Assembly: GCA_017446885.1 (NCBI GenBank)
Contig: JAFSOR010000009.1
Coordinates: 102,159 to 166,158, forward strand
DNA from: Spirochaetia bacterium
Lineage (GTDB): Bacteria; Spirochaetota; Spirochaetia; CADAEX01
Length of the DNA stretch: 64,000 nt
Direction: 5' to 3'
The notes beneath the pieces are model-generated. The model had not been told where the DNA came from and made no database searches. It saw only the letters and a program-made list of their open reading frames with translations. Shown here in pieces: positions 4,566-56,320 of the stretch. Within the stretch, counting starts at the first letter, position 1, and every line of letters begins with the position of its first letter. The position numbers and the translations under genes were made by a program.

Positions 4566-6047
4566 ATGCAGTTTAAAAGATTTTCACTTGTTCTTTTAGT
4601 TTTAATTTTCTCTGCTTCCATGATTTTTGCCTTAGGTTCTGCGGAACAGGCAAAGCCTGAAAGCGGAATCACAGAAGCTCAGCCATCCCAGGAACAGCGG
4701 GTGGCCCCCAGCTCTAAAGGCGAGCTTTTCTATTCTTTCAGCGGAATTACAAAAAAAGTTCTTCCATCTGTAGTAGAGCTTGATGTTGTTGAGGTTGTCC
4801 GTCAGGAGACCTTCAACTTCTTCAATCCGTTCGAATTCTTCTTTGGCGGCGGCCGGGGCGGAGACAATAACAATGGCAAGACCTACAAGGAATATGAGCG
4901 CCCAGGCCTTGGCTCAGGCATCATGATCAAGCAGGATGGCGACACAGTATATGTCCTTACTAACAGCCATGTTGCAGGAAAAGCAGACCAGATTACTGTA
5001 AAGCTTGCCGACGGACAGAAGTTCGATGCTACAAAAGTAGGTGCCGACGACAGGATGGACCTGGCTCTGGTATCGTTCAAGTGCTCCGACAAAGTTCCTG
5101 TTGCGACATTCGGCGATTCCGATTCCTTGGAGGTAGGCGACATTGTTCTTGCAATAGGTTCTCCTTATGGCTATGAATCTTCAGTTACAATGGGTATTGT
5201 AAGCGGTCTTAAGAGAAAGAGCACCGGGCAGATTTCTAACTACACCGACTATATCCAGACCGATGCATCCATAAACCCAGGTAACTCTGGCGGTGCCCTT
5301 GTCAACATGAAAGGCGAGGTTGTGGGAATAAACACCTGGATTGCAACCCAGAGCGGCGGCAGCATAGGACTTGGCTTTGCCATTCCATCCAACAACGCAA
5401 AACGGGTTGCCAACGACTTTATCACCAAAGGAAAGGTTGAATACGGCTGGCTTGGTGTATCTATAGACACAGTGGATGAGAACAGCTATCCGGACCTGCG
5501 CAAGGATTTAGGCCTCGGAAACAAGGGTGGTGGACTTATACTTGGTGTATTCAAGGGTTCTCCGGCAGACAAGGCAGGCATTCTCCCTGGCGACTTTATC
5601 ACCAAGATAAATGGAACTGTAATCACCGATTCTTCGCAGCTTACCAAGGTCATTGGAACTATTCCTCCTAAGGAGAAGGCATCATTCACCCTTATAAGGA
5701 ATAAGAAGGAGATGACCTTGAATGTAGTCCTCGAGGCACGTGATGATGAGGACAAGGTTCAGTCCAACCGCGACATCTATCCGGGCTTCCTTGCTATCAA
5801 TATCGACGAGAAGATGAGGACAAAGGGCGAGCTTGGCGATATCAAGGGTGTTATGATTGTGGCAGTATCGCAGGGTACAGCTGCCGAGCAGGCAAACCTT
5901 AAGGTTGGCGACATAATCCAGGAGATAAACGACAAGCCTGTAACCAACATGGCAGAGTTCTACAGTGCGCTGAATGATAAATCCAGCAAGAAGATGTTCC
6001 AGATTAGCAGAAATGGACAGAAAATAATTGTTGGATTTGTAAAATGA
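4566..6047 (+). CDS. htrA: periplasmic serine endoprotease DegP/HtrA with PDZ domains
   Basis: signal peptide; catalytic motif GNSGGALVNMKGEVVGINT; two PDZ-like C-terminal segments. Confidence 0.85.
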   Translation: MQFKRFSLVLLVLIFSASMIFALGSAEQAKPESGITEAQPSQEQRVAPSSKGELFYSFSGITKKVLPSVVELDVVEVVRQETFNFFNPFEFFFGGGRGGDNNNGKTYKEYERPGLGSGIMIKQDGDTVYVLTNSHVAGKADQITVKLADGQKFDATKVGADDRMDLALVSFKCSDKVPVATFGDSDSLEVGDIVLAIGSPYGYESSVTMGIVSGLKRKSTGQISNYTDYIQTDASINPGNSGGALVNMKGEVVGINTWIATQSGGSIGLGFAIPSNNAKRVANDFITKGKVEYGWLGVSIDTVDENSYPDLRKDLGLGNKGGGLILGVFKGSPADKAGILPGDFITKINGTVITDSSQLTKVIGTIPPKEKASFTLIRNKKEMTLNVVLEARDDEDKVQSNRDIYPGFLAINIDEKMRTKGELGDIKGVMIVAVSQGTAAEQANLKVGDIIQEINDKPVTNMAEFYSALNDKSSKKMFQISRNGQKIIVGFVK

Positions 6048-6877
6048 GGCGTATTACATGCCTTGCAGTTTTCTTCATTCTGGCTTTAAGCTCAGCTTGG
6101 AGCCAGGAGAAGGTATATCTCTGGAAGGACGTTCATTCCATGCGGAATGAGCGTTCTTGCTTTTATTATTATGCTCCAGCTAAAGACGAAGATACCCATA
6201 TCGCAGTCATAATTTGCCATGGCGGAAGCTATCATCACAGGAGCATGGGAACCGAAGGGCGCGATGTTGCAGCCTGGTTTGCCGAACGGGGCTACCATGC
6301 CTTTGTCCTTAAATACAGGGTTGCAATGGATGGATATCACCACCCGGCTATGATACAGGATTTCCAGCGTACTATGCAGCTGGTGCGCGAGAATGCCTCA
6401 GAATATGGCATAGAAAACGATAGGGTTGGAGCCATTGGCTTTTCGGCCGGTGGGCATCTGGTGACTATGGCCGGTGCTTTCGGAGAAGAAAGCTATCTTA
6501 AACCGCTGGGCATAGAGACCAGTGTAAGCCTTAAACCAGATTTTGTAATTCCTGTATATCCTGTTGTTACCATGCTGGAGCCATATGAGCACCGCTGGTC
6601 CAGGCTTAGCCTTCTGGGGCGGAGTGCCGACGAGGATACGCGTAAAAAATTTTCCATGGAATGCCAGATTACAAGTGCTATGCCCCCAGTTTTCCTGCTT
6701 GCCTGCAAAGATGACGCCACAGTGGACTACCATAACAGCGTATTGCTGGACCAGGCACTTACAGATGCCGGGGTGGAGCACCAGTTTGTCCTTAGGGAGA
6801 CAGGCGACCACGGTTTTGGAATGAATTATGGATGGGGAGATGCCCTTTACAGTTGGCTTAAAAAATTATACCATTGA
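6044..6877 (+). CDS. alpha/beta-hydrolase esterase (acetyl-esterase/lipase-like), secreted
   Basis: HGGSYHH oxyanion motif and GFSAGGHL nucleophile elbow; signal peptide. Confidence 0.7.
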   Translation: MRRITCLAVFFILALSSAWSQEKVYLWKDVHSMRNERSCFYYYAPAKDEDTHIAVIICHGGSYHHRSMGTEGRDVAAWFAERGYHAFVLKYRVAMDGYHHPAMIQDFQRTMQLVRENASEYGIENDRVGAIGFSAGGHLVTMAGAFGEESYLKPLGIETSVSLKPDFVIPVYPVVTMLEPYEHRWSRLSLLGRSADEDTRKKFSMECQITSAMPPVFLLACKDDATVDYHNSVLLDQALTDAGVEHQFVLRETGDHGFGMNYGWGDALYSWLKKLYH

Positions 6878-48339: not shown

Positions 48340-49356
48340 CTACTTTTTCCCTGCTTTATAAGCAAGCTGACCACAGGCTCCGGAGACTCCGAAGCCTTTT
48401 CTTTTTCTCAGGGTGTAGTTTATTCCCAGCTTGTCAAGCTTTGAGCAGAATACATTGATATCCTTGCGGTCGGGAGTCTGGAAGGGCTTTCCCTCCACTG
48501 TATTCCATGGAATAAGATTCACCAGCACCGAGAGGCCGCTTGTGAAGTGCCTCAGTGCTTTTATATCCTCGTCTCCCATATTGAAGTCTTTTATAAGCAC
48601 ATACTCGAAGGTGAAGCGCTTGTTCTTGTCCTCTTGGAACGCCTTAAGTGCCTCCTTGAGTTCTGCAAGAGGGTAGCGGGCAGTGATAGGCATTATCTGG
48701 CGCCGTTTATCCTCTATGGCACTGTTGAGCGACACCGCAAGCCTTATCTCCAGCTTGCTCTGGGCCAGGGCCTGTATGCCAGGGATAACACCGCAGGTGG
48801 ATATAGTCATCCGCCGGGCCCCAAGTCCTATTGCATTCTTGTCGTTAAGTATTGTTATTGCCTTCTTCAGGTTGTCGATGTTGTCGAAGGGTTCACCCAT
48901 CCCCATGAATACTATGTTGGAGAGCTTGCCTGCAATTCTGGAGCCTATAAGGTACTGCTCCAGTATCTCCCCGGCGGTCAGGTTCCGCTTAAAGCCCATG
49001 TCGGCAGTGCGGCAGAAGGCACAGCCCATCTTGCAGCCCAACTGGCTTGATATGCAGATAGTTTTCCTGTCGGTGCCGTCAGAAAGTATGACGCACTCGG
49101 TGAAAAGCCCGTCGGCAAGCTCAAGGCGCAGCTTGCAGTTTCCGCCATCGTCATCAAGGGCTGTATCAACTTTCATGGTAAAAAGTGAATAGTTCTGGCT
49201 TAAAGTCTGCCGCAGTGAAAGGGGCAGGTCTGTGATTGCATCAAAGCTCTCTATGCAGGAATAAAGGGCATGGTAGATCTGTTTGCTGCGGAACTTTTCC
49301 TTGACCTGGATAAGCTCCTGTATCTCGTCGGGAGTCAGTCCTAAAAGGCTTTTCAT
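48340..49356 (-). CDS. rlmN: 23S rRNA/tRNA adenine-C2 methyltransferase, radical SAM
   Basis: radical-SAM CxxxCxxC (CKMGCAFCRT), MGMGEP and downstream family-typical Cys (STCG); start placed at the internal Met (MKSLLGLTPDEIQ) to avoid overlap with hisB. Confidence 0.8.
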   Translation of the reverse strand: MKSLLGLTPDEIQELIQVKEKFRSKQIYHALYSCIESFDAITDLPLSLRQTLSQNYSLFTMKVDTALDDDGGNCKLRLELADGLFTECVILSDGTDRKTICISSQLGCKMGCAFCRTADMGFKRNLTAGEILEQYLIGSRIAGKLSNIVFMGMGEPFDNIDNLKKAITILNDKNAIGLGARRMTISTCGVIPGIQALAQSKLEIRLAVSLNSAIEDKRRQIMPITARYPLAELKEALKAFQEDKNKRFTFEYVLIKDFNMGDEDIKALRHFTSGLSVLVNLIPWNTVEGKPFQTPDRKDINVFCSKLDKLGINYTLRKRKGFGVSGACGQLAYKAGKK

Positions 49357-49360
49357 GGTA

Positions 49361-49945
49361 TCAGATAAGGCCTTTGGTGGAAAGCACCTGGTCTGAATCT
49401 GCAGCTGCATAGGACTGGGCAATTGCTTTGCCAAGAGCCTTGAAAAGGGCTTCTGCCATGTGGTGGCTGTTCTGGCCGTAACGGCAGGTGCAGTGCAGTG
49501 CTATCTGTGCTCTGTTTGAAAGGGCTATAAGGAATTCCCTTATAAGGCACATATCGAAGGTGCCGGAATAGGGCTGTGGAAAATCGGCATTAAGCACCAT
49601 GGAAGGGCGGCCGCAGATATCGATGACAGCCTCGGACACAGCCTCGTCCATAGGGATGATGGAATAGCCGTAGCGCTTGACGACACCTGCTTTCTCAGCA
49701 GACTTGGCAAGGGCATCACCCAGTACAAGACCGATGTCCTCAATCAGGTGGTGAGGGTCTACATCTATATCGCCGTCTGCCTTTATCTTAAGGGCAAAAC
49801 TGCCATGGAATGCCATTGCTGTAAGCATGTGGTTGAAGAAAGCCACAGGGGTATCAATCTCAACACCCTTTGCATCCATATCAAGAGTCAGCTTTATGTC
49901 TGTCTCCTTGGTCTTTCTCTTTAATACAACAGTACGGTTTCCCAT
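49361..49945 (-). CDS. hisB: imidazoleglycerol-phosphate dehydratase
   Basis: N-terminal RKTKETDIKLTLD and HHLIED metal-binding motifs; start at MGNRTVV rather than the longer ORF. Confidence 0.85.
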   Translation of the reverse strand: MGNRTVVLKRKTKETDIKLTLDMDAKGVEIDTPVAFFNHMLTAMAFHGSFALKIKADGDIDVDPHHLIEDIGLVLGDALAKSAEKAGVVKRYGYSIIPMDEAVSEAVIDICGRPSMVLNADFPQPYSGTFDMCLIREFLIALSNRAQIALHCTCRYGQNSHHMAEALFKALGKAIAQSYAAADSDQVLSTKGLI

Positions 49946-51443: not shown

Positions 51444-53105
51444 ATGAAAAAGAATTTGAAACGGTTGATTATTGCTGTTCTCGCACTTTGCCTTTTCAGC
51501 CTTGCAACATGTAAAAGCCCATCTTCTTTAACCGGAACGGAAGATGGTGCGAAGGGTAACGAGGCAGTGAGAGTCGTCTGTGAAAACGGCATCATGCTGG
51601 GAAAGTCCTCAGATGGAGTCATATCCTTCAAGGGTGTCCCGTTTGCAAAACCGCCTGTGAATGAACTTCGCTGGAAAGCGCCTCAGGCTCTGGCCCCGAG
51701 TGATCAGGAGATCAAATGCTACGATTTCGGATACACCGCGCTGCAGTATGAGTGGCCGTCTGAACTGGCGTCATATTCACCTAAAAGCGAAGACTGTCTG
51801 ACGCTGAACATCTGGGAGAAAGAAGGGATCATCGGCAGTGAAGAACAAAAACCCGTGATGGTATTTTTTCACGGAGGCGCTTACGGATGGGGAGGAACTA
51901 CAGATCCTGTATATAACGGACAGAATTTTGCAAAGGCACACGACGATGTTATTATAGTAACTTGTAATTATCGTCTCGGGCTTATGTCGTTTGCAGATTT
52001 TTCCAAGGTCGAAGGGGGAGAAGAATACACTGATATCAATCTCGGAATCCGTGATCATATCGCTGCGTTGCAGTGGATACAAAAGAATATAAGCGGATTC
52101 GGGGGAGATCCTGATAATGTTACTATATTCGGCGAATCGGCAGGCGCATGGTCCACTACCGCTCTGACAATCTCGCCTAAGGCAAGAGGACTGTTTAAGA
52201 GAGCTATCGCCCAGAGCGGACAGGTTGCGCCAAAAAGCAGAGAAGATGCTCAGAAGTATGCGGAGTTCATCATGCAATCAAGCGGCGCCAAAAATATGAA
52301 AGAGCTAATGGCTATTTCGGGAGAAGAGTGGATGAAAATCGACGCCGAGAAGATGATAGCCGACGAATGCTGTTATGTGGTTGCCGATGGGGATATCATT
52401 CCCGAAGATTTCGACAAGGCAATCGAGGATGCTGCAAAGAGGGGGATACAGCTGCTCATTGGGACAAATAACGATGAATGGAATTACTTTCAAGAGGATT
52501 CCATAGGAAAAACCACACAGGAGAAATTCAATTCCTGGGTAGAAGGAATGGATGGTATAATCGCCGGAGCCCGCGACATGACGGATAATGAAGGAAAAGC
52601 GGCAATCGAAGAACTTATCCAATACGAAGAGAATATTGTTCCTGAGGAATATGCAGGCGATGAAAAGGTTAAGTCTGCCCTGACCAAGTCTGGGGTTGTA
52701 TCAGAACTGTGGAGATACGAGATACTGAATTTTGCTGACAAGTTCGCAGACGCCGGAGGAGATACATACGTATATCTTTGGAATGTTCCTTCAACCAGAG
52801 ATGATATGTATAAGAGCGCGGTTCACGCTGTTGAACTGCCATATATATTCAATAATATGGAGACAGATCAATGCGCCGGAGAAGTTGCCCCCAATGTAGC
52901 CGCAAAAGCACAGAAATCATGGATCAGCTTTGCAAAGACAGGAGACCCGACCGTCCAGGGGGTGGACTGGAAGAAATACAACACAGCCGAAAGAGATATA
53001 ATGGTCATAGAAAAGGATAAGTGGGATTGTATTCCCGATCCTTCAAACACAGCGCGTGAGCTTCTATGGAAGGCGTTTAAAGACGAGCCATACCATGTAT
53101 GGTGA
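51444..53105 (+). CDS. carboxylesterase type B (para-nitrobenzyl-esterase-like), lipoprotein
   Basis: lipobox SLATC; nucleophile elbow GESAGA; HGGAY oxyanion region; 553 aa. Confidence 0.85.
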   Translation: MKKNLKRLIIAVLALCLFSLATCKSPSSLTGTEDGAKGNEAVRVVCENGIMLGKSSDGVISFKGVPFAKPPVNELRWKAPQALAPSDQEIKCYDFGYTALQYEWPSELASYSPKSEDCLTLNIWEKEGIIGSEEQKPVMVFFHGGAYGWGGTTDPVYNGQNFAKAHDDVIIVTCNYRLGLMSFADFSKVEGGEEYTDINLGIRDHIAALQWIQKNISGFGGDPDNVTIFGESAGAWSTTALTISPKARGLFKRAIAQSGQVAPKSREDAQKYAEFIMQSSGAKNMKELMAISGEEWMKIDAEKMIADECCYVVADGDIIPEDFDKAIEDAAKRGIQLLIGTNNDEWNYFQEDSIGKTTQEKFNSWVEGMDGIIAGARDMTDNEGKAAIEELIQYEENIVPEEYAGDEKVKSALTKSGVVSELWRYEILNFADKFADAGGDTYVYLWNVPSTRDDMYKSAVHAVELPYIFNNMETDQCAGEVAPNVAAKAQKSWISFAKTGDPTVQGVDWKKYNTAERDIMVIEKDKWDCIPDPSNTARELLWKAFKDEPYHVW

Positions 53106-53230
53106 TATATATATCCTGACCCTCAGCTGGAAAAGATAATATATCTTATAAAATATATTGCTGTCTCTATTTATTTTTGCATTATTATATGATAATCTTT
53201 ATAATTGGAGGCATAATTATTCCAATCGAT

Positions 53231-53896
53231 ATGACAAAAATTACAAAGGAAATGGCTGCTAAAGCATTGGAGTGCAAGACAGCCGATGACCTGGTTTCCC
53301 TTGCTAAGGCCAACGGTGTCACGCTTACAAAGGAAGAGGCTGAGGCCTACTTGGCTGACCTTGAGGATGTTGAACTTGACGAGAAAGCTCTTGATAAAGT
53401 GGCAGGAGGATCCTGTTACACTCAAACGTCTTGCGATAATAATGAATGTAATCCCGCCCACCCCAAGTGCTTTACAGGCGATTCAGAGGTGGCTGTGCCT
53501 GGCGGTGTAAAGTGCATCAAGGATTTGCAGCTTGGAGACAAAGTTATTACCTTGGATGCATCTGGGAAGGAGATTGTAGGCGTGGTGACCGAAGTGGTTC
53601 CGCCGACAGAAGAGGATATTGTGGAGGTCACTTTCTCCAATGGCACACTTTGGCGGACAACCGAAAGCCAGACCCTGTATCTGGGACATGAGCAGAATTA
53701 TATGGTAAAGGATGCGAAAGGAAAGAAAGCCCTTTTACGTGATGGCGGAACTGCCACTGTGACAGATGTCAAGTTCACAGGAAAGCGGGAGACAGTATAT
53801 GACGTTCTGGTTGGCGAGGAGGAGGATGAGGATGTCATCTTCGTCTCTGGAATTGCTGCCGAAGGATATTTTACCAAGGGTGAGCGAGGACTGTAA
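53231..53896 (+). CDS. leader-peptide precursor: Nif11-like double-glycine leader (60 aa) + 19-aa Cys-rich core + C-terminal Hint (hedgehog/intein-like) domain
   Basis: leader ...ELDEKALDKVAGG; core SCYTQTSCDNNECNPAHPK; Hint block A CFTGDSEVAV, GDKV, block F-like VYDVLV...VIFVSGIAAEG; possible ATT start at 53219 at ideal SD spacing. Confidence 0.7.
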   Translation: MTKITKEMAAKALECKTADDLVSLAKANGVTLTKEEAEAYLADLEDVELDEKALDKVAGGSCYTQTSCDNNECNPAHPKCFTGDSEVAVPGGVKCIKDLQLGDKVITLDASGKEIVGVVTEVVPPTEEDIVEVTFSNGTLWRTTESQTLYLGHEQNYMVKDAKGKKALLRDGGTATVTDVKFTGKRETVYDVLVGEEEDEDVIFVSGIAAEGYFTKGERGL

Positions 53897-53914
53897 TGAA
53901 AAAGAGGAGGAAAA

Positions 53915-54145
53915 ATGCCTATCGATAAGACAAAAATTTCAAAGGCAATGCTTGAAAAAGCGAGAGAGTGCAAGACAGCCGATGAGCTGATGATCCGGGC
54001 AAAGGCCGAAGGTTTCATACTGACAAAAGAAGAGGCCGAGGCTTACATGGACGAGCTGGATGACATTGAACTGGACGAGAAAGCACTTGATAAAGTGGCA
54101 GGTGGAAACTGTTATACAAAGTGTGCTTTAGAAGGCCCGATGTAA
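53915..54145 (+). CDS. small Nif11-like double-glycine-leader precursor peptide, core NCYTKCALEGPM
   Basis: strong RBS GAGGAGG; leader MPIDKTKISKAML...LDEKALDKVAGG; 76 aa. Confidence 0.7.
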   Translation: MPIDKTKISKAMLEKARECKTADELMIRAKAEGFILTKEEAEAYMDELDDIELDEKALDKVAGGNCYTKCALEGPM

Positions 54146-54166
54146 GATTATACAAGGAGGAAAAAT

Positions 54167-54400
54167 ATGAAAATTGACAAGACAAAAATTTCAAAAGCAA
54201 TGATTGATAAAGCTTTGAAGTGCGAATCTGCTGAGGAGCTGATGGCTATTGCTAAGGCTGAGGGTCTTGAAATCACCAAAGATGAGGCAGAGGCATACAT
54301 GGCAGAGCTTGACAACATGGAACTGGACAATGCTGCTCTGGATAATGTGGCTGCTGGTTATTGTCATCGTACCACCCCATGCACGGAAGTATTTCGTTGA
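54167..54400 (+). CDS. small Nif11-like leader precursor peptide (leader ends VAAG), core YCHRTTPCTEVFR
   Basis: RBS AGGAGG; leader MKIDKTKISKAMI...LDNAALDNVAAG; 77 aa. Confidence 0.65.
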   Translation: MKIDKTKISKAMIDKALKCESAEELMAIAKAEGLEITKDEAEAYMAELDNMELDNAALDNVAAGYCHRTTPCTEVFR

Positions 54401-54451
54401 TCGGCATTCACTGCATAATAATCAGTGAACCACGAGTAGTATTAGGAGACA

Positions 54452-54691
54452 ATGAATACGGCAAACATCAACAAAAATGACCTGACAAAGGAACAGGTTG
54501 CTAAGGCGATGGCCTGCAAAACTGCGGAGGAACTGATGGCTCTGGCAAAATCCGAGGGCATGGAACTTACGAAAGAAGAGGCCTAGGCTTACATGGCAGA
54601 GATTGAGGACGTTGAACTTGATGAGAAAGCTCTTGATAAAGTGGCCGGCGGTGGCTGTTACTCAGATTGTAAAGCTGAAGCTTGGCTTTAA
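54452..54691 (+). pseudogene. fourth leader-peptide precursor copy with an in-frame TAG at 54584..54586 (core GCYSDCKAEAWL)
   Basis: RBS AGGAG; MNTANINKNDLTKEQVAKAMACKTAEELMALAKSEGMELTKEEA-stop-AYMAEIEDVELDEKALDKVAGGGCYSDCKAEAWL; GAG-to-TAG relative to the paralogs. Confidence 0.55.
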
Positions 54692-54705
54692 TTTAGGGGG
54701 AATAT

Positions 54706-54813
54706 ATACCGATTGATAAATCAAAAATCACCACAGAGATGATCGAGAGGGCCAAGCAGTGCGAGAATGCCGATGAACTGGTGGCTCTTGCCAAAAAAAG
54801 GAGAACAATATGA
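54706..54813 (+). pseudogene. fifth leader copy remnant: start codon ATA, leader truncated after ...ELVALAKK, runs into the next gene's RBS
   Basis: translation IPIDKSKITTEMIERAKQCENADELVALAKKRRTI aligns with the N-termini of copies 1-3. Confidence 0.4.
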
Positions 54814-55202
54814 AGTCAGTATATGAATTCATAAAGAAGTGCGGTGTATATTACCTGGCCACAGTGGAAGGGGACCAGCCCCGGGTGAGGCCATTCGGCA
54901 CTATAAATATCTTCGAGGGAAAGCTCTATATCCAGACAGGGAAGGTGAAGCCCGTATCCAAGCAGATTGCTGCTGATCCGAAGGTGGAGCTCTCATGTTT
55001 TGACGGCGCTACATGGTTAAGGCTTTCCGGCACACTGGTCAACGACGACCGTATTGAGCCTAAGATTGATATGCTTGTGCATTTCCCTGAGCTCAAATCT
55101 ATCTATGCAGCTGACGATGACAACACCCAGGTGCTCTATTTCAAGGATGCCAAGGCTGTGTTCTCCACCTTCACAGCACCACCAAAAGTAGTAGAGTTCT
55201 AA
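54810..55202 (+). CDS. pyridoxamine-5'-phosphate-oxidase-family (split-barrel FMN-binding) protein
   Basis: 130 aa; PNPOx-like pattern (VYYLATVEGDQPRVRPF...). Confidence 0.55.
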   Translation: MKSVYEFIKKCGVYYLATVEGDQPRVRPFGTINIFEGKLYIQTGKVKPVSKQIAADPKVELSCFDGATWLRLSGTLVNDDRIEPKIDMLVHFPELKSIYAADDDNTQVLYFKDAKAVFSTFTAPPKVVEF

Positions 55203-56320
55203 ACCAGTTTTGCAATATCCTGGCAGCAGCGCTCTATCACATGCCGGGCAGGAGGGAAAGTATCTATCTGCCTGCTCATGTAGCTGATGATGCGCACACA
55301 GCCTAAAAGCTGGGCCTTTTGTGCTGTCTCCTTAAGTATTGCCTGGTCTTCGGTGCCCAGATACAGCCTTAGGCTTTTATCCCAGATGTAGCTGGCAGTC
55401 TTAACAGAAATGCCTAAGAAGGCGGCAGCGTTGGGGTCTATGTCCGGGAACTCCTTGTAGGAGTTGTACAGTGTTGCCAGCTCGAAGATGGGGTCTCCTG
55501 TGCATATTGTGTCCATATCTATGAGCATAGGCTCGCCGTCGCAGATCAGGAAGTTCTTCAGGTGAGTGTCGGCATGGAGCAGGCTTAGGCTGTCCGGCAC
55601 ATCGTTTATGGCCTTTATAAGCTTTCCATATATCTCCTGGGAGAAATAATCTTTTATTCCCTGGGCCCAGGATAGGGTTTTTTCCTTCATGTCAGGCAGT
55701 TCCCCGGGCTTCATCTGGATCGAATGGATCTGCTTTATCAGAACCACCGATTTTTCTATGAAGTCATCCAGCTCCTTCTGTCCACGATTCACATATTCCG
55801 ATGACATTTCTGCATTTATAAGCTCGAAGACTGCGCCGTACTGGTCGCCTACCATGACTATGTCGTAGGGGATGGCGGTGGGAACCCCTTTGACAAAGGC
55901 CTTCCGGGAAAGCTCCCGCTCCCTGTCCACCGTCTCCATTGCAGTCCCTTTGTTGTAGACCTTCACAATGGTGTCCGGTGCGATGCGGTATACTGCGCCA
56001 TGGGCACCCCGTCCCAGCTCCCTGCATCCCTCTATGCTTATCTTCCTCAGGGCCTTCTGCACCTTGAGGATCTCCACAAACCCGGTCATGTCGAATATCT
56101 CGTAGACAGCGGGCTGGGCGTTGATCACCTGCACATCTTTGTATTTCTGTGCCAGGCGGAGGAGGATACGGAGTCCTGCGCTGGATATGTATTCAAGCTT
56201 CTCTGCGTCAAGGACAATGGTGCCGGGAATCCCGCTGCCTACAGCCTGCAGTATCTCCTTTTCCCACTGGGCTGAGTTTGTGCTGTCTATATGGCCGGAA
56301 AGGGGGATGGTCTTTGTCAT
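55199..56320 (-). CDS. STAS-domain fused to an aminoglycoside-phosphotransferase/choline-kinase-like kinase
   Basis: N-terminal ~100 aa STAS-like; Brenner-type catalytic loop HADTHLKNFL and metal-binding IDMD. Confidence 0.55.
   Translation of the reverse strand: MTKTIPLSGHIDSTNSAQWEKEILQAVGSGIPGTIVLDAEKLEYISSAGLRILLRLAQKYKDVQVINAQPAVYEIFDMTGFVEILKVQKALRKISIEGCRELGRGAHGAVYRIAPDTIVKVYNKGTAMETVDRERELSRKAFVKGVPTAIPYDIVMVGDQYGAVFELINAEMSSEYVNRGQKELDDFIEKSVVLIKQIHSIQMKPGELPDMKEKTLSWAQGIKDYFSQEIYGKLIKAINDVPDSLSLLHADTHLKNFLICDGEPMLIDMDTICTGDPIFELATLYNSYKEFPDIDPNAAAFLGISVKTASYIWDKSLRLYLGTEDQAILKETAQKAQLLGCVRIISYMSRQIDTFPPARHVIERCCQDIAKLV

Follow-up and report, generated by a model that had tools for sequence, protein, structure and literature searches.

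The window analysed here is a stretch of 64,000 nucleotides from a Spirochaetia metagenome-assembled genome (MAG), and all positions refer to it unless another contig is named. It contains five precursor genes in tandem, which are true paralogues: they belong to a 214-nt direct-repeat family with 66–77% identity, and a family HMM scores copies 1–4 at 100–130 bits. The genes and features of the locus are as follows.

53176..53205, + strand: best match to a sigma-70-like promoter (TTTGCA-18-TATAAT, 10/12 matches)
53219-54801, + strand: array of five precursor genes
53219..53896, + strand: copy 1, in which a Nif11-like leader and GG are followed by the Cys-rich core SCYTQTSCDNNECNPAHPK and, at the C-terminus, a Hint domain
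53915..54145, + strand: copy 2, intact 76-aa precursor with core NCYTKCALEGPM (NCBI MBR0318245)
54167..54400, + strand: copy 3, intact, encoding a 77-aa precursor with cleavage motif AAG and core YCHRTTPCTEVFR (MBR0318246)
54452..54691, + strand: copy 4, 79-codon precursor gene with core GCYSDCKAEAWL, interrupted at codon 45
54584..54586, + strand: TAG nonsense codon of copy 4 (GAG>TAG, E45*)
54593..54691, + strand: 32-codon ORF MAEIEDVELDEKALDKVAGGGCYSDCKAEAWL, opened by an in-frame ATG at codon 48 (Met48), 6 nt past the stop
54653-54688: 12-residue core GCYSDCKAEAWL of copy 4
54706..54801, + strand: copy 5 remnant, which has ATA for ATG, retains no more than leader codons ~1-31 and is joined to the RBS of the PNPOx-like gene
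54810..55202, + strand: PNPOx-like gene (Pfam PNPOx_N)
55199-56320, - strand: STAS-APH kinase gene, overlapping the mutL stop with its start
~54466-56320 (1.85 kb): strain-variable segment, reaching from within copy 4 through copy 5 and the PNPOx-like gene to the end of the STAS-APH kinase gene

Since the -10 box of the best promoter match abuts the Shine-Dalgarno (SD) sequence of copy 1, the true promoter may lie slightly further upstream. No terminator-like site was found on the + strand before 55301-55315, which suggests a single operon of array and PNPOx-like gene, with the latter now probably read from the array transcript. The ATG-initiated copies 2–4 have SD sequences of -7.3 to -11.9 kcal/mol. 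Copy 1 has ATT at the ancestral start (53219), behind a strong SD (-9.3 kcal/mol), and its first ATG (53231) has no SD. The ATT of copy 1 and the ATA of copy 5 both replace the ATG of their paralogues, each 4–7 nt past a strong SD (53207-53233 and 54695-54708). An ATT start with a full-length ORF is also found in other strains (P0014, P0015, P0017, P0018, P0031), a recurrence that suggests near-cognate initiation. In the copy-3 protein cluster (20 members), 15/15 listed members are full length; one copy-3 orthologue, in L108 (5806-5949), is shortened to 47 aa. Between copies 3 and 4 (54407-54429) lies a 7-bp inverted repeat, TTCACTG..CAGTGAA, with a 9-nt loop and no T-run, which is kept in sister strains, even those without copy 4. 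A search for structured RNA in 52900-55400 returned a single chance-level Rfam match.

On sequence grounds, the cassettes are Nif11-like, double-glycine-leader precursors of RiPPs. An intact gene encodes a Nif11-like leader of ~65 residues, a Gly-Gly site and a short Cys-containing core. The copies match the NCBIfam model TIGR03798 at 25.1–29.3 bits, below its cutoff of 32.3 and with significant E-values (1.5e-5 to 7.7e-7); matches to Pfam Nif11 (PF07862; 16.9–21.7 bits versus a cutoff of 23.8), ComC and Bacteriocin_IIc are weaker, and some homologues are labelled 'nif11-like leader' by JGI. The cleavage motif is VAGG in copies 1, 2 and 4 and VAAG in copy 3. Across the family, the double glycine after the leader is conserved in 433/455 (G66) and 448/455 (G67) members, and a common core motif is C-[YW]-x-[DEN]-C. 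More than 1600 homologues are present in public data, nearly all from rumen/gut metagenomes and MAGs. The MAGs are those of Selenomonadaceae, Acidaminococcaceae/Succiniclasticum, Schwartzia, Spirochaetia and Lachnospiraceae, often with many loci per genome. A literature search returned no paper containing the core sequence or describing the rumen family, which is apparently a large, undescribed family of radical SAM/SPASM RiPPs. The original prediction, made from the DNA alone, had likened the locus to orphan toxin/immunity or pilin cassettes. This assignment fails: Pfam and NCBIfam searches of the cassettes revealed no toxin/immunity families, only Nif11/ComC-like leaders and Hint, and the family comes instead with Nif11-like leaders, a radical SAM/SPASM maturase and a C39 ABC exporter.

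Some precursors of the family bear a C-terminal Hint autoprocessing domain. Copy 1 scores 33.9 bits with Pfam Hint_2 (cutoff 28.4), 25.6 bits with TIGR03798 and 99.9 bits with the family HMM. The same arrangement of a Nif11-like leader, a Cys-rich core of 16–23 residues and a Hint domain occurs in L113 (5575-6339 and 6971-7654) and in L041 (from 7006), the latter being a near-identical fusion from a Schwartzia MAG with an in-frame stop. In these fusions, the Hint domain, above the Pfam Hint_2 cutoff, begins with Cys (..PAHPK followed by CFTGDSEV), and it could release the core as a C-terminal thioester. The first of the two L113 fusions (5575-6339) continues into a decayed leader fragment, and L008 (1-198) has an in-frame fusion of a Hint C-terminus with a late leader and GCYSDCKAEAWL. 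A PDB sequence search with the Hint part gave marginal Hedgehog matches only, limited to the first 40 residues, and the literature search found no paper linking Nif11 or RiPP leaders to Hint domains.

Candidates for the enzymes that would act on these precursors are encoded beside homologous precursors in other genomes. In many of them, a protein of 505–576 aa with a CxxxCxxC motif and a SPASM domain lies directly 3' of a precursor. In the homologous cluster of Lachnospiraceae AD3010 (L024), a precursor with core GCYSDCKAEAWL is followed by a radical SAM/SPASM protein and an HlyD-like protein and then by two ABC proteins, the first of which is a C39 exporter that contains Peptidase_C39 and matches TIGR03796 at 885 bits (cutoff 853). 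Neither a maturase nor a C39 exporter was found within the 64-kb window, in which the large ORFs around the array encode housekeeping proteins (RecG, DnaE, MutL, HydF, GroEL and others); the radical SAM gene at 48340-49434 was considered as a maturase and rejected as RlmN-like by synteny. Since only housekeeping genes surround it, the array appears to supply satellite substrates for enzymes encoded elsewhere. Precursor sets remote from the modifying enzymes are general among Nif11-type systems (PMC6363468). The same MAG encodes a maturase, P0314 (MBR0318381), in the accession series of the window proteins (NCBI MBR0318245-49, 'Spirochaetia bacterium' MAG), and one copy of the maturase locus shares its sample with a contig identical to the window. 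Maturase locus L113 contains two radical SAM maturases, ~ten precursors, a DUF7005 protein and two Nif11-Hint fusions. The DUF7005 protein (272 aa, L113 1792-2610) sits between precursors and may be a further tailoring or immunity component.

The best NCBIfam matches of the maturase are to CefB, TIGR04463, Clo7bot and PapB (E-values 1e-31 to 1e-47). The scores are far below all cutoffs (CefB 161/600 bits, TIGR04463 131/525, PapB 109/340), placing the maturase outside every named family. In the pathway that we envisage, a radical SAM/SPASM maturase from elsewhere in the genome would bind the leader and cross-link the core, probably through a thioether; judging from homologous clusters, cleavage behind GG and export of the peptide would follow, both carried out by a C39-peptidase ABC exporter. 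The C-[YW]-x-[D/E/N]-C motif together with a PapB-like maturase suggests a thioether from Cys to Asp, Glu or Asn. Partner-switching genes (STAS, SpoIIE phosphatase with a dCache sensor, sigma factor) adjoin precursor arrays in unrelated genomes (window 55199-56320, - strand; L013 3103-5289; L018 6660-9244), which could be a coincidence or a regulatory link.

The core of copy 4 is exceptional within this family. GCYSDCKAEAWL is found unchanged behind leaders that are only 66–75% identical in Spirochaetia, Selenomonadaceae and Lachnospiraceae (L012, L022, L024, L028 and others). Its five DNA versions differ synonymously at 11/12 codons with zero amino-acid changes, although K>T occurs in one database variant, and the product thus seems to be under strong purifying selection. 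Bacteriocin-like peptides do not usually keep a 12-residue core unchanged from phylum to phylum.

In the window, the gene for this core is interrupted. Copy 4 reads gaggccTAGgcttacatg, with T at 54584, where the equivalent stretch of copy 2 is gaggccGAGgcttacatg, and the ORF list accordingly gives a 44-aa product for 54452-54586. The TAG replaces Glu45, which is conserved in 422/455 aligned family members (93%), as the original prediction had proposed from comparison with the paralogues. It had also pointed to an in-frame ATG soon after the stop, and the ORF list places it at 54593, with a 32-aa ORF consisting of a 20-aa double-glycine leader and the core. The family HMM scores copy 4 at 130.5 bits across the stop, and a second lesion is absent, the ORF 3' of the stop being intact. 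Protein accessions of the MAG skip from copy 3 straight to the PNPOx-like protein, consistent with copy 4 having no protein annotation. Exact-protein look-ups with two flanking genes retrieved contigs from ERZ28019070, ERZ28654536 and SRR12529382, which are 100% identical to 53100-55300 where they overlap, including both the TAG and the ATA of copy 5; one of these three assemblies may share reads with the window. The 44-aa N-terminal fragment is recorded from 9 contigs.

A search with the repaired copy-4 protein retrieved P0003, a 79-aa protein that is 99% identical and encoded by contig L011 (ERZ28594074). At L011 positions 42-281, orthologous to 54452-54691, the codon is GAG where the window has TAG, so that TAG is a segregating G>T allele. 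Thus, comparison with related strains did yield a copy 4 without the stop, yet this allele, the sole one known with GAG at the position, has TGC>AGC (C22S) at a leader Cys conserved in 451/455 members (99%), and may also be impaired. With TAG in the window allele and C22S in that of L011, both known alleles are damaged, by different mutations.

Copy 5 is a remnant, and both features ascribed to it originally, the ATA start and the truncation against the RBS of the PNPOx-like gene, are seen in the sequence. It starts with ATA CCG ATT GAT AAA from 54706, with AGGGGGA just 5', encodes IPIDKSKITTEMIERAKQCENADELVALAKK and then enters AGGAGAACAATATG, which is the RBS and start of the PNPOx-like gene (54810). 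The family HMM matches it at 28.5 bits over profile positions 2-32 only. Near-cognate codons such as ATA and ATT can initiate translation weakly, and the ATA lies 4 nt past a strong SD (-9.3 kcal/mol). The loss of the ATG by itself thus does not prove inactivity; the decisive defect is the truncation. In L103 and L028, unrelated AT-rich DNA precedes the PNPOx-like gene and homology begins 3 nt before its ATG, indicating that a deletion fused leader codon ~31 to the RBS. By this comparison, the gene appears to stand directly behind the remnant without the promoter region seen in other species. L011 shares the ATA, the truncation and the PNPOx-like junction, and because they are common to the TAG and GAG alleles, the copy-5 remnant predates the TAG. 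The nearest relative of copy 5 in L103 is the last cassette of that array and is likewise decayed. Copies 4 and 5 each carry a disabling lesion compared with an intact orthologue that is no sequence error, which is how a pseudogene is recognized, and both are probably dead.

Rapid turnover of the locus, which had been proposed from the mixture of intact and decaying copies, is borne out by sister strains, in which the syntenic sites hold 3 to 10 cassettes and show segment indels and mosaic alleles. The array site itself is fixed, between the Vut_1/O-methyltransferase genes and mutL/hydF, and its cargo varies among related spirochaetes, examples being the PNPOx-like gene, a type I R-M system and unknown genes. 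Five contigs (L005-L008 and L010) retain just 14 nt from the start of copy 4, joined straight to the mutL 3' end, so that ~54466-56320 is missing there. The strains without this 1.85-kb segment are 93–99.7% identical to the window up to the breakpoint, and the C-terminus of mutL reads ..ERTLR versus ..ERTV. In L099 and L100, copy 4 adjoins mutL directly. The position-4 alleles are 98–99% identical between strains in their 5' half (RBS and codons 1-47) and differ in their late-leader/core modules: GCYSDCKAEAWL, ACYANCPLEGPM, IQPCWENCPDEAWM, EGNCYMDCPNFVLPPI, GTCYTAY, SCYLKDC... The 3' module of the window has a 98% match behind another 5' context in L008 and a 90% match in another slot in L107-L112. 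Recombination, also part of the original prediction, is thus clear between strains in the form of mosaic alleles and only weakly indicated among the window's own five copies: the gene-conversion tracts are short (runs of 7–9 sites) and not convincing, with a best uncorrected P of 0.009–0.02 over 6 pairs. A six-frame HMM census of decay in 113 sources, with 298 unique cassettes, counted 8 genuine internal stops and ~25 non-edge partial or frameshifted cassettes; ~10% are nonsense, frameshifted or truncated.

Position 4 has been damaged more than once. Three different G>T stops occur there, E45* (TAG) in the window, E42* (TAA) in three samples and E38* (TAA) in one sample, along with the 14-nt deletion remnant (five contigs) and C22S. 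In the protein database, nonsense events number ~3 in ~21 position-4 alleles versus 4 in 288 elsewhere, an approximate P of ~0.008 from a sampling that is not clean. Stops were also enriched at position 4 in the set of loci retrieved, a result that we dropped as ascertainment-biased because truncated alleles had been fetched deliberately. A scan of JGI metagenomes with the copy-4 start found two further loci, both intact.

These observations are best explained, very probably in our judgement, by decay within a hypervariable satellite array of RiPP precursors, the TAG of copy 4 being real and recent and the remnant of copy 5 older. On this view, a recent G>T change turned leader codon Glu45 of copy 4 into TAG, with the consequence that the full-length precursor can no longer be made; the TAG allele is common in one clonal strain, and a GAG allele still exists. 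Copy 5 decayed earlier and has kept ~31 leader codons and an ATA start, a deletion having brought it up against the RBS of the PNPOx-like gene. Selection that is relaxed or negative would account for both lesions, which lie at the mutL-proximal edge of an array in which cassettes are gained, lost and reshuffled among closely related strains.

Other explanations fit the data less well. That copy 4 is really intact, its TAG being a sequencing or assembly error or a codon that is recoded or read through (e.g. as pyrrolysine), is extremely improbable. The rarity of TAG as a stop in the window (2/46 long ORFs) speaks for recoding, and the original prediction had allowed that either lesion could be an error. 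The independent assemblies are identical, which rejects an error for both lesions, and the TAG is one base away from GAG at a position with Glu in 93% of the family. We also rejected recoding, since TAG ends two well-supported window genes (RlmN-like, 48340-49434, and STAS-APH kinase, 55199-56320) and the sister alleles carry TAA, an ordinary stop in the window (15/46 ORFs). It is very improbable that the decayed copies serve as silent donor cassettes for gene conversion, as in pilin or surface-antigen variation. The occurrence of late-leader and core modules behind different leader 5' halves between strains (L008, L107-L112) is in keeping with such a role, as are chimeric leaders, e.g. P0014. 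However, every intact cassette comes with an SD and a start of its own, all within one apparent operon, which argues that they are not silent donor copies, and there is no single expression site. Moreover, copy 5 lacks the core, the sole variable part worth donating, the tract tests within the window are weak, and its copies are only 68–78% identical.

A more elaborate alternative holds that the TAG allele is not null. Reinitiation or a direct start at Met48 (54593) would give a 32-aa peptide, and the stops would form a selected switch that shortens the leader. Without the Nif11-like N-terminal region, the product would escape the radical SAM maturase, yet it could be cleaved and exported. Three independent G>T stops (codons 38, 42 and 45) lie upstream of Met48, and the downstream ORF is open each time; given the nonsense-mutable codon positions, their confinement to codons 38-45 has a post hoc P of ~0.01–0.03, which is suggestive only and is unpredicted by pure neutral decay. 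The 20 residues that remain form a canonical double-glycine leader, with hydrophobic residues at -4, -7 and -12 before GG. For Nif11-type substrates, the final 13 residues of the leader are all that the C39 protease LahT150 requires (PMC6363468). A GAGG 5 nt before the Met48 ATG is retained in E38* and E42*, but in the window allele the TAG itself removes the nearest GAGG, and the SD of Met48 is weak (-5.8 to -5.9 kcal/mol). Besides being post hoc, the clustering statistic concerns a stretch in which Glu codons are concentrated. Other nonsense alleles of the family are off-pattern, with no Met before GG in L041 and a stop at codon ~12 in L050; Met48 is Leu in 182/455 members (40%); and the outright deletion and C22S at position 4 fit loss rather than retooling. 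We therefore regard a functional product from Met48 as unlikely, and it is distinctly improbable that the stops at codons 38, 42 and 45 represent a repeatedly selected switch to a short double-glycine peptide that bypasses the maturase and is still cleaved and exported. If the switch did exist, the peptide released in this strain would be GCYSDCKAEAWL, the core that is invariant across phyla, in unmodified form.

Under the preferred reading of decay, the lesions themselves are ordinary pseudogenisation of limited practical value. They give the order of events, with the copy-5 remnant earlier and the TAG later, and indicate that the mutL-side edge of the array has been eroded repeatedly and independently in natural rumen populations. 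A natural pair of strains, only one of which has an intact GCYSDCKAEAWL gene, could be of use in testing the role of the peptide. The context outweighs the lesions: a radical SAM/SPASM RiPP family common to rumen Spirochaetia, Negativicutes and Lachnospiraceae.

Among known systems, prochlorosin (ProcA) and LahA1-9 precursors share with this family a long conserved Nif11-like leader that ends in GG and precedes a hypervariable short core, many paralogous precursors per genome, some of them far from the modifying enzyme, and cleavage and export by a C39-peptidase ABC protein (PMC6363468), represented here by TIGR03796 in L024. Unlike the LanM lanthipeptide synthetase of those systems, the maturase here is a radical SAM/SPASM protein; Ser/Thr is not conserved in the cores, the leader HMM scores are below curated cutoffs, and one core, GCYSDCKAEAWL, stays the same from phylum to phylum instead of diversifying. 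Ranthipeptide-type systems (PapB, CefB 'Cys-every-fifth', TIGR04463, Clo7bot) resemble the present one in the CxxxCxxC radical SAM core, the SPASM domain and the N-terminal extension of the maturase. PapB is reported to cross-link Cys/Asp or Cys/Glu pairs, which the core motif C-[YW]-x-[D/E/N]-C resembles (PMC9413430). By contrast, the maturase described here scores far below the ranthipeptide cutoffs and its cross-link is putative, and the Nif11-like leaders with GG export differ from SCIFF-type precursors. Ruminococcin C of a gut anaerobe, with RumC1-C5 and two radical SAM maturases (PMC10470295), is similar in its tandem precursors and matches the organization of L113. Unlike Ruminococcin C, to which we found no sequence relationship and whose leaders are not Nif11-like, the array in the window is detached from its maturases and includes pseudogenes and a Hint fusion.
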